Origin: a virus
Taxonomy: Duplodnaviria > Heunggongvirae > Uroviricota > Caudoviricetes
IMG/VR virus record: IMGVR_UViG_2740892370_000006
Reading direction: 5' to 3' (one strand)
DNA: 6,394 nucleotides
A program made the translations under genes and the position numbers. Of the stretch, positions 1,559 to 2,320 are shown piece by piece. A model generated the notes under the pieces. It worked only from the letters and a program-made list of their open reading frames with translations, ran no database searches and had not been told where the DNA came from. Position 1 is the stretch's first letter; each line of letters begins with the position of its first letter.

Positions 1559-1573
1559 TATTGTCTCTGATTT

Positions 1574-1589
1574 CTGTTGTCGTCAACAG
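1574..1589. promoter_or_regulatory. Inverted repeat CTGTTG-N4-CAACAG; candidate ParD (RHH) operator overlapping the parDE -35
   Basis: Sequence ctgttgtcgtcaacag has perfect 6-bp inverted arms around a 4-bp centre. It overlaps TTGTCG on the plus strand and TTGACG on the minus strand. RHH antitoxins typically autoregulate through short repeats of this kind. Confidence 0.35.
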
Positions 1590-1604
1590 GCAACGTGCTA
1601 TCAT
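1577..1604 (+). promoter_or_regulatory. Candidate sigma70 promoter for parDE (-35 TTGTCG, 16-bp spacer, -10 TATCAT)
   Basis: TTGTCG at 1577-1582 and TATCAT at 1599-1604, about 35 nt upstream of the parD ATG; SD GAGG at 1629-1632. Confidence 0.4.
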
Positions 1605-1639
1605 CGAATGGTGTTCTATCCTACTCCGTGAGGTTTACC

Positions 1640-1897
1640 ATGCGTACAACCCAACAATTCAGCATTACATTAACTAACGAAATGGCTGACATGGTGCGCG
1701 CCCGTGTGGCTTCCGGTGCCTATGCTTCAGAAAGCGAGGTCATTCGTGAAGGGCTTCGCGCACTGAATGAGCGCGATAAAGCAATCGAAGCGTGGTTAAC
1801 GCATTCAGCCGCCCCCTCTCTTGATTCTATCCGCGAAAATCCAAACAACGGACGCTCCATTTCACAGGTTCGCGCCGCGATTCGATCCGGGAAGTAA
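1640..1897 (+). CDS. parD: Type II antitoxin, ParD family (ribbon-helix-helix, COG3609-like)
   Basis: ATG at 1640 with GAGG SD 7 nt upstream; the track start at 1577 is a TTG and is rejected. The 85-aa product MRTTQQFSITLTNEMADMVRARVASGAYASESEVIREGLRALNERDKAIEAWL... has the RHH signature (VxSGxYxSxSEVIREGLR) typical of ParD. It ends 5 nt before the ParE-like gene. Confidence 0.85.
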   Translation: MRTTQQFSITLTNEMADMVRARVASGAYASESEVIREGLRALNERDKAIEAWLTHSAAPSLDSIRENPNNGRSISQVRAAIRSGK

Positions 1898-1902
1898 TCT
1901 GC

Positions 1903-2202
1903 ATGACATATGAAGTCATCATTACTCCTGAGGCCGAACAACAAATAATCAACCTGCACAGGTATATAACGGAGAAAGCAGGGAACGTCATTGCTGACAA
2001 TTATGCCAATGCGCTTCTTGATTATCTTGATGGGTTTTCTACATTCCCGCATCGGGGCAATAAACGCGATGATATTCGCCAGGGGATGCGGGTAACTCAT
2101 TTCCGCCACAGAACGATTATTGCTTTTGCCGTTGATAGCAGAAAAGTCTTTATTGTCGGTATCTATCATGGTGGGCAAAGTTATGAAACCGATTTCTTAT
2201 AA
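1903..2202 (+). CDS. parE: Type II toxin, ParE/RelE superfamily
   Basis: 99-aa ORF starting at ATG 1903, 5 nt after the parD stop. It has the ParE-like pattern (N-terminal ITPEAEQQI helix region, FPHRG, GMRVTHFRHRTIIAFAV..VFIVGIYHGGQ). Antitoxin-then-toxin order and size fit a ParDE module. Confidence 0.85.
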   Translation: MTYEVIITPEAEQQIINLHRYITEKAGNVIADNYANALLDYLDGFSTFPHRGNKRDDIRQGMRVTHFRHRTIIAFAVDSRKVFIVGIYHGGQSYETDFL

Positions 2203-2284
2203 ACTTTTACCCACATCATTCCGGTGTTAGAATTAACCGTCCGCCCCCTCTCTTACTGGCGGATTCGTAGGCTATATAAATCAA

Positions 2285-2320
2285 AGATCCCGGCTCATGT
2301 TTATGTCGGGATCTTTTTTC
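2285..2320 (+). terminator. Rho-independent terminator of the parDE transcript
   Basis: Stem AGATCCCG (2285-2292) pairs with CGGGATCT (2307-2314); the loop is about 14 nt and the stem is followed by a T-run that ends at 2319. On the minus strand the stem is followed by GA, so termination is expected in the plus direction only. Confidence 0.65.

Follow-up and report, generated by a model that had tools for sequence, protein, structure and literature searches.

A ParD-ParE-type toxin-antitoxin cassette in inverted orientation within the early operon of a Qin-like lambdoid prophage

Described relatives of the cassette

The canonical ParD-ParE toxin-antitoxin (TA) systems, amongst them RK2 ParDE, Caulobacter ParD1-ParE1 (PDB 3kxe), Mesorhizobium ParD3-ParE3 (5ceg/6x0a), V. 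cholerae ParD2-ParE2 (7r5a) and M. tuberculosis ParDE1 (8c24), comprise a ribbon-helix-helix antitoxin, ParD, followed by a ParE toxin of approximately 100 amino acids. The same arrangement is found in the stretch of viral DNA analysed here (6394 nucleotides, IMG/VR record IMGVR_UViG_2740892370_000006; hereafter the window), and HMMs and a predicted fold place its toxin closest to the toxins of these systems. The cassette differs from them in belonging to a narrow Enterobacterales lineage, whose loci, as far as they were examined in E. coli, Yersinia and Salmonella, lie in prophages, and whose target and operator are presumed. Both genes carry annotation already, RefSeq labelling them ParD and RelE/ParE and PHROGs assigning both families to TA systems in the category ‘moron, auxiliary metabolic gene and host takeover’, so that the family is indeed a known one, as a preliminary description of this DNA had remarked. 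Literature searches that paired ParDE with prophages and Shiga toxin, or TA systems with either ArgO145 or the nin region, yielded no experimental work on the cassette, which is thus an uncharacterised member of a well-known family; what we add is an analysis of the slot that it occupies and of its consistent inversion.

ParE-fold toxins have also been described from other prophages. ParESO-CopASO maintains the excised CP4So prophage of Shewanella (PMC8706911), and PfiT/PfiA modulates Pf4 of Pseudomonas (PMC7264888), so that these pairs stabilise their prophage or modulate its production. PfiT (9w3a) is amongst the top structural neighbours of the toxin described here, whilst both pairs differ from our cassette, whose function is presumed, in phage type, antitoxin family and genomic position. 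PaaR2-PaaA2-ParE2, from a cryptic prophage of E. coli O157:H7, is likewise a lambdoid-prophage ParE system of pathogenic E. coli with a similar toxin fold (5cw7, 5czf; PMC8630535), but has three components, including an unrelated antitoxin, PaaA2, and a separate regulator, whereas the cassette is a two-gene pair with a ribbon-helix-helix antitoxin. By position, the closest systems are relBE-hokD of Qin and hokD of other lambdoid prophages, which occupy the same slot upstream of the YdfU (DUF968) block, Qin being integrated at the same rspB site. Those occupants are co-directional with the early operon, whereas parDE is inverted, and the toxin classes differ: RelE is an mRNA interferase, HokD a membrane peptide and ParE presumably a gyrase poison. 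With phage morons in general the cassette shares an autonomous promoter-gene-terminator layout, presence or absence amongst relatives and the PHROGs ‘moron’ category, which agrees with the moron-like architecture suggested beforehand; its G+C content, however, is not distinctive, and its expression in the lysogen is presumed.

The parD and parE genes and their signals

The two genes lie on the plus strand, as had been proposed, and both are intact. The first, parD (1640-1897), encodes a putative antitoxin of 85 amino acids and has a Shine-Dalgarno motif (GAGG, 1630-1633) six nucleotides ahead of its ATG, and the second, parE (1903-2202), encoding a predicted 99-amino acid toxin, begins after a gap of 5 nucleotides from the parD stop codon (1895-1897). 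This antitoxin-first order with a short gap is kept in all relatives. ParD was matched by Pfam ParD_antitoxin (PF03693; E = 1.6e-7, 32.1 bits, cut-off 21), by NCBIfam TIGR02606 (53.8 bits, curated cut-off 46.2) and, as a full-length family member aligned over 85/85 residues, by the PHROGs family phrog_6494 ‘antitoxin’ (1.7e-56). Residues 6-51 align to the ribbon-helix-helix of solved ParD proteins (PDB 3kxe, 7ycv, 7b22), and we therefore assign to the antitoxin a predicted N-terminal ribbon-helix-helix DNA-binding domain of the ParD/CopG type. A longer reading of parD, from a TTG at 1577 (106 amino acids), was rejected given the Shine-Dalgarno motif at ATG 1640, the 85/85 PHROG alignment and the GTG found in its place in Enterobacter.

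The toxin was matched by Pfam ParE_toxin (PF05016; E = 4.5e-10, 40.4 bits, cut-off 23) and by the full-length PHROGs family phrog_5232 ‘toxin’ (2.4e-43), and a profile built from 16 homologues matched, within the PDB, only ParE-type toxins of ParD-type complexes (6x0a, 5ceg, 7ycs, 8c24). Identity to the solved ParE structures is only 13-24%. When an AlphaFold2 model of the protein (pLDDT 83) was compared with the PDB using Foldseek, each of the best 20 neighbours was a ParE or ParE-like toxin from a TA complex, with a TM score of about 0.7, whilst RelE, YoeB and YafQ scored lower than these (0.45-0.58). The HMMs and the predicted fold together place the toxin in the ParE branch of the RelE/ParE superfamily, apart from the RelE, YoeB, YafQ and HigB mRNA interferases.

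In order to assess selection we used 79 IMG/VR loci in which ParE is 86-100% identical, the selection figures covering 78-80 loci. Pooled pN/pS values were 0.10 for parD and 0.14 for parE, indicating purifying selection on both genes, and the commonest ParD and ParE variants amongst the loci are those encoded in the window. A frameshifted parE was present at a single locus of the IMG/VR set, and the Stx2a phages of O157:H7 have kept parD and lost parE, so that the toxin is dispensable in some lineages.

A candidate sigma-70 promoter for parDE (1577-1604, plus strand) reads TTGTCG-16 nt-TATCAT with an extended -10 TG at 1596-1597, a 9/12 match to consensus, at the position given in the preliminary description. 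Since the number of promoter-like matches in the region (three) was not above that expected from shuffled sequence (2.4), support for this promoter comes from its conservation: neither the hexamers nor the TG vary across 80/80 E. coli-type loci, and relatives from Yersinia, Salmonella and Enterobacter with 62-72% ParE identity have a TG-extended -10 with identical spacing to the start codon.

Two palindromes accompany this promoter. The first, O1 (1574-1589; CTGTTG-TCGT-CAACAG), is perfect, holds the parD -35 hexamer TTGTCG together with its mirror TTGACG on the opposite strand, and has a core, GTCGTCAA, that is invariant across genera; from its sequence it may be a ParD operator, or merely two overlapping divergent -35 hexamers. 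In order to see which genes the palindrome accompanies, viral contigs were scanned with the 14-mer TGTTGTCGTCAACA, giving at least 119 loci. Amongst the matches listed, 106 of 119 loci were without a ParD or isrK match and are presumably chance occurrences, and the sole informative locus amongst those listed was L139, where the palindrome accompanies an isrK promoter and parDE is replaced by a gp49/HigB-like and HigA-like pair, identities that were judged from translations only. Because O1 is found there beside the isrK promoter and an unrelated TA pair, it is possibly not a ParD operator. The second, imperfect palindrome, O2 (1606-1621, plus strand; GAAT(G/A)GTGTTCTATCC), spans the predicted transcription start, is the most conserved non-coding block amongst the E. 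coli, Yersinia, Salmonella and Enterobacter loci, and is missing in L139, where another TA pair follows the shared O1 palindrome. As a candidate operator specific to the parD side, O2 is the safer choice of the two, ParD binding itself being inferred.

The opposite strand carries a promoter-like remnant (1557-1586, minus strand; TTGACG-18 nt-AATATT) which faces hyp90-YdfU-RusA and the Q-position gene. Its activity is doubtful, since the first T of its -10 has been lost in the window.

Downstream of parE the transcript would end at an intrinsic terminator (2283-2319, plus strand), consisting of a 12-bp stem (arms 2283-2294 and 2305-2316), a 10-nucleotide loop and a T6 run (2314-2319), within a few bases of the 2285-2320 initially proposed. 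The terminator scanner missed it only because of the length of its loop. On the plus strand the hairpin folds at -20.7 kcal/mol (z = -3.9), and none of 200 shuffles was as good. When 20 distinct variants were aligned, pairing was kept in 99.5% of cells, two stem pairs had changed on both sides in a compensatory manner (A-U to C-G; U-A to G-C), and the T-run is 5-7 long in every variant; only 1/500 shuffles matched the observed value on any of five measures, and slid-partner controls were 39-55% paired. That a terminator stands where it could guard the upstream operon, as first suggested, is borne out; however, the minus-strand sequence forms the hairpin too (-19.4 kcal/mol, z = -2.6, with a weaker tail, UUUGAUUUAU), so that it may act in both directions, and on the early operon besides protecting it.

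An earlier hairpin in the 3'-UTR (2239-2264, plus strand; GUCCGCC...GGCGGAU) pairs in all cells, with one-sided changes only (G-U to A-U, C-G to U-G), and its loop is a C-tract that varies from 4 to 8 between loci. We also considered an Hfq-type sRNA downstream of parE, made up of a promoter-like match at 2206-2233 and the two hairpins; this was rejected, the -10 register being lost in Yersinia and promoter-like matches being at chance level. Converging on the terminator, with its stop 7 nucleotides from the hairpin, is a 27-codon ORF (2327-2410, minus strand) to which no RefSeq feature corresponds. It overlaps the 114-amino acid gene by an ATGA and is found, as eleven peptide variants with synonymous changes, at no fewer than 70 loci including one hokD-type prophage, a distribution that points to operon backbone and not to part of the TA pair.

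A recurrent toxin-antitoxin slot

The window is 100% identical to the chromosomes of several Shiga-toxin-producing E. coli strains, and in NZ_CP027219 it lies inside a lambdoid prophage integrated beside rspB (Qin-like). The early operon of this prophage reads, on the minus strand, cro-like, YdaT, O-like HTH protein, DnaC-like ATPase, DUF1627, DUF977, Ea22 and hyp114 (114 amino acids; 2407-2751), and continues past the inverted parDE with hyp90 (1232-1504), DUF968/YdfU (184-1230), RusA, a DUF1133 protein, tRNA genes and lysis genes. The DUF1133 gene takes the position that belongs to an annotated antiterminator Q in sister prophages. The cassette is thus inverted within the rightward early operon and embedded, as had been noted, between minus-strand genes, hyp90 and DUF968/YdfU on one side and hyp114 on the other; and since it falls between O/P-like replication genes and YdfU-RusA with the Q-position gene, ‘nin-like’ was the correct term for the region. 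Its G+C content (0.46-0.49, against 0.44-0.46 in the genes on its right) shows no mark of foreign origin, and a search of the whole window against Rfam (E <= 1) returned only a chance miRNA match, with no isrK, C4 or other RNA family.

The left junction of the cassette, where homology to the hyp90-YdfU backbone ends and cassette-specific sequence starts, falls at 1547-1573. Amongst the matches listed, which span more than 4500 genomes, those covering only the backbone end at 1547-1555, whilst phages of the ArgO145 type match the window from 1557 or 1569 on. Beyond this junction the occupant varies. In four sampled prophages hokD is next upstream of hyp90, co-oriented with the operon and with its own terminator just before hyp90, and of 5426 complete E. 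coli genomes at least 2665 match this hokD-hyp90 junction over its full length; the parDE cassette is found in 371 of the 5426 (about 6-7%), at full length in 328, always on the chromosome, and many of the carriers amongst those listed are Shiga-toxin-producing strains. K-12 Qin, at the same rspB site, has relB-relE-hokD-rem directly upstream of ydfU, all co-oriented with the operon, and so the likeness to relBE near ydfU in Qin, drawn beforehand, holds. Homology between hyp90 and Rem was considered and rejected, the two giving no alignment at all.

As hokD, relBE or parDE can occupy the same junction, the locus is better described as a site of cassette exchange at a fixed slot than as a one-off insertion. 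Of the preliminary description of an inverted, inserted cassette the inversion stands, whereas simple insertion gives way to replacement at a recurrent TA slot whose commonest occupant is hokD. The junction at 1547-1555, which has hokD or relBE in other prophages, also gives the cassette the presence/absence pattern of a moron at a defined site; the terminator is its own, as is the predicted promoter, a conserved consensus match. Amongst the occupants seen at the hyp90-YdfU slot, only parDE is inverted.

The slot is one of several settings of this lineage. At 75 of the 79 loci from IMG/VR the left flank is the nin-type DUF968/hyp90 pair, and its orientation relative to the cassette never varies. 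In the Stx2a phage ArgO145 and its relatives a 98.9% identical cassette lies inverted in the early-left region, with an ORF6N antirepressor on one side and hyp114/HNH/Ea22 on the other. The Yersinia homologues are found between recombination or antirepressor genes and SieB plus the repressor, the Salmonella homologues converge on antiterminator Q, and both are on the opposite strand to the surrounding phage genes; the Enterobacter homologues are in an island with IS elements. Relatives with 68-100% ParE identity, from E. coli, Yersinia and Salmonella prophages, thus occupy three positions and are inverted relative to their neighbours at each, and none of the prophage loci examined departs from this phage-borne, inverted arrangement. 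The protein family is small; grouped at 90% identity it forms 34 clusters, which come from Enterobacterales except for one Desulfovibrio sequence.

At one of the three positions the cassette stands back to back with the promoter of an isrK-C4-antirepressor unit. In the ArgO145-type, O157, L083 and Yersinia loci, isrK and the C4 antisense RNA, both scoring above Rfam gathering thresholds, are encoded on the minus strand within the approximately 330 nucleotides that precede parD, with the antirepressor gene next. A minus-strand promoter-like element, TTGACG-18-TATATT, lies about 7 nucleotides upstream of the isrK 5' end in these loci and shares the O1 palindrome; the window holds only the degraded copy, TTGACG-18-AATATT, without isrK or C4.

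The cassette itself carries minor weight, adding a phage-specific ParDE lineage to a well-known family, and the comparative picture is the more useful part. E. coli lambdoid prophages have at least two fixed slots at which TA cassettes of different types are swapped, one upstream of hyp90-YdfU and one beside the isrK-C4-antirepressor promoter, and the occupants seen across them are hok/sok, relBE, parDE, parD with its toxin replaced, and gp49-HigB/HigA.

Proposed role of the cassette

Taken together, the evidence makes it probable that the cassette is an intact, self-transcribed type II ParD-ParE module, a moron that occupies the TA slot in the nin-like part of a Qin-like lambdoid prophage. 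By analogy with described ParD-ParE pairs it is most likely a canonical autoregulated addiction system. ParD dimers would bind a palindromic operator at the promoter (O2 and/or O1) through their ribbon-helix-helix domain, repressing parDE, and the C-terminal tail of ParD would wrap and neutralise ParE. ParD would be proteolytically unstable, so that a halt in its synthesis, whether by prophage loss or by transcriptional shut-off, would free ParE to poison DNA gyrase, with double-strand breaks, an SOS response and arrested growth as the outcome. The most likely biological role is to retain the prophage or the segment with the cassette, and some protection against incoming phages may follow as a side effect. 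The inverted orientation would allow the module to be expressed in the lysogen while the early operon is silent, and the terminator would end parDE transcripts before they could enter the upstream early genes in antisense, whilst any early-operon transcripts reading beyond the hairpin after induction would be antisense to parE and parD. The activity of gyrase-poisoning TA systems can induce lambdoid prophages via SOS (PMC10899753), and a toxin of this kind in prophages of Shiga-toxin strains could influence their SOS-dependent induction.

The alternative that survives best, possible though rather unlikely as the whole explanation, is a purely selfish passenger that brings no gain to phage or host, persists because a TA pair is hard to lose and the slot tolerates cargo, and lies in whichever orientation spares the early operon. 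The patchy presence and absence of the cassette amongst near-identical prophages fits this account, as do the swaps at the same junctions (hokD, relBE, parDE, parD with a lipoprotein and higA, and gp49-HigB/HigA) and the O157 phages that are without parE. Strong purifying selection on both genes and inversion at three different phage positions argue for more than a passenger; since both would also fit selfish persistence, this account overlaps with the addiction module favoured above more than it excludes it.

Less probable, and in our view unlikely as the main role, is abortive infection or exclusion, in which an invading phage would stop host transcription, ParD would decay and ParE would kill or arrest the cell first, sparing the lysogen population. 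The autonomy of the cassette, possibly expressed in the lysogen from its conserved predicted promoter and ending at its terminator, is compatible with such a role, and the Yersinia copy lies near the SieB exclusion gene, with cargo slots elsewhere holding other TA systems. Anti-phage defence is known for type II TA systems (review PMC12548467), but our literature search found no defence report for the ParDE lineage of the cassette, and a search of PADLOC-DB 2.0 (E <= 0.01) gave no match to a model of a known or candidate defence system for ParD, ParE or the neighbouring proteins. Gyrase poisoning is, moreover, slow relative to lytic phage development, which weighs against this role.

We consider regulatory coupling to the phage switch improbable. 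On this view the shared palindrome, occupied by ParD or ParD-ParE, would serve to regulate the back-to-back promoter as well, or convergent early transcription would silence parDE upon induction and release ParE. The location of both -35 hexamers inside O1 speaks for it, as do the minus-strand promoter just upstream of isrK, with C4 and the antirepressor beyond, in the ArgO145-type, O157, L083 and Yersinia loci, and the ability of the terminator hairpin to fold on both strands. However, the minus-strand -10 is degraded to AATATT in the window and the isrK-C4 genes are absent from it, and the palindrome is perhaps just two overlapping -35 boxes and is present without parD in L139. Still more speculative, and a little less probable again, is a cassette wired into the decision circuit of the phage, the toxin:antitoxin ratio setting the outward promoter, provided that ParD or ParD-ParE binds O1, and read-through on induction silencing parDE and releasing ParE, so that the module would be an induction checkpoint and not only an addiction system. 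If this were true, the point of control would be the promoter that drives isrK-C4-antirepressor in related phages and that here faces hyp90-YdfU-RusA and the Q-position gene.

Finally, a decaying and non-functional remnant, for which the truncated or frameshifted parE of some relatives might be cited, is very improbable, since both genes of the window are of full length, their products are the ParD and ParE variants seen most often, pN/pS stands at 0.10 and 0.14, and promoter and terminator are conserved, the latter with compensatory changes.

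Cargo exchange around parD and parE in related loci

In the E. coli O157:H7 Stx2a prophage (locus L003, 5072-6050) parD is retained at 87% nucleotide identity, whilst parE is cut, ending after eight codons (MAYEVPH*), and a 90-aa lipoprotein-like ORF together with an orphan HigA-family antitoxin gene stand in place of the toxin gene. This arrangement looks like either an orphan antitoxin or toxin swapping at the same site. In some loci (L077-L082; L091-L093, 4425-4826) parE is separated from the terminator or the small ORF described below by a lipoprotein-like gene of the same orientation, which encodes a signal peptide and a lipobox ending in SGC, and the parDE unit can therefore hold additional cargo.

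Directly upstream of parD, and divergent from it, three related loci carry minus-strand genes for the isrK and C4 antisense RNAs scoring above the Rfam gathering thresholds (L003, 4800-4982; L083, 3462-3661; L091, 3456-3643), followed by an antirepressor gene, so that in these loci the cassette sits back to back with a P1-immI-like or Gifsy-like control region. Both RNAs are absent from the window. Upstream of this region and parDE in L083, a plus-strand 406-aa ORF (2108-3328) occupies the place of the YdfU backbone and may be a further cargo or defence gene. A further relative, L139 (6640-7450), has the same isrK promoter and palindrome (TGTTGTCGTCAACA) as the parDE relatives, and here a gp49/HigB-like ORF followed by a HigA-like helix-turn-helix ORF, assigned to family from their translations only, replace parDE. 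The L139 site is a second hot spot of toxin-antitoxin exchange. Since the palindrome accompanies non-parDE genes in L139, its role as a ParD operator is doubtful.

Terminators and the 3′ side of parE

In hokD-type prophages, which carry hokD in the slot taken by parDE in the window, an operon-strand intrinsic terminator lies directly upstream of hyp90 (L008, 3590-3612, minus strand), and in the window the terminator of parDE is at 2283-2319; both cassette types thus set a terminator before hyp90-YdfU-RusA-Q. Early transcription may reach Q in these Qin-like phages by antitermination or from an internal promoter.

The plus-strand segment 2206-2320, directly 3′ of the parE stop, resembles an sRNA gene in layout: it comprises a promoter-like site (TTTACC-16-TAGAAT with TG) and, beyond this, a hairpin, an AU-rich linker and finally the terminator. 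No Rfam match was found for 2206-2320, the register of the promoter-like site past the parE stop is not kept in Yersinia, and the segment is probably merely the parDE 3′ UTR. The C-run (2245-2249) in the loop of the hairpin at 2239-2264 varies from 4 to 8 bases among otherwise near-identical loci, which is a homopolymer length polymorphism.

Minus-strand ORFs beside the cassette

Converging on the parDE terminator is an unannotated minus-strand ORF of 27 codons (2327-2410) encoding a hydrophobic peptide, its ATG sharing ATGA with the stop of the 114-aa gene and GGAGG lying upstream. Searches of Pfam, PHROG and PADLOC gave zero matches. Across at least 70 loci, the hokD-type prophage L008 (4295 to 4218) among them, the ORF occurs as 11 peptide variants, with synonymous changes.

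On the minus strand, 2748-3263 reads as one unbroken ORF of 171 codons, which aligns with phrog_9263 across profile positions 62-230 of 230 (E 2e-123); this gene seems to be without the N-terminal part of the family. The RefSeq annotation here covers 3085-3263 only, as a frameshifted pseudogene.
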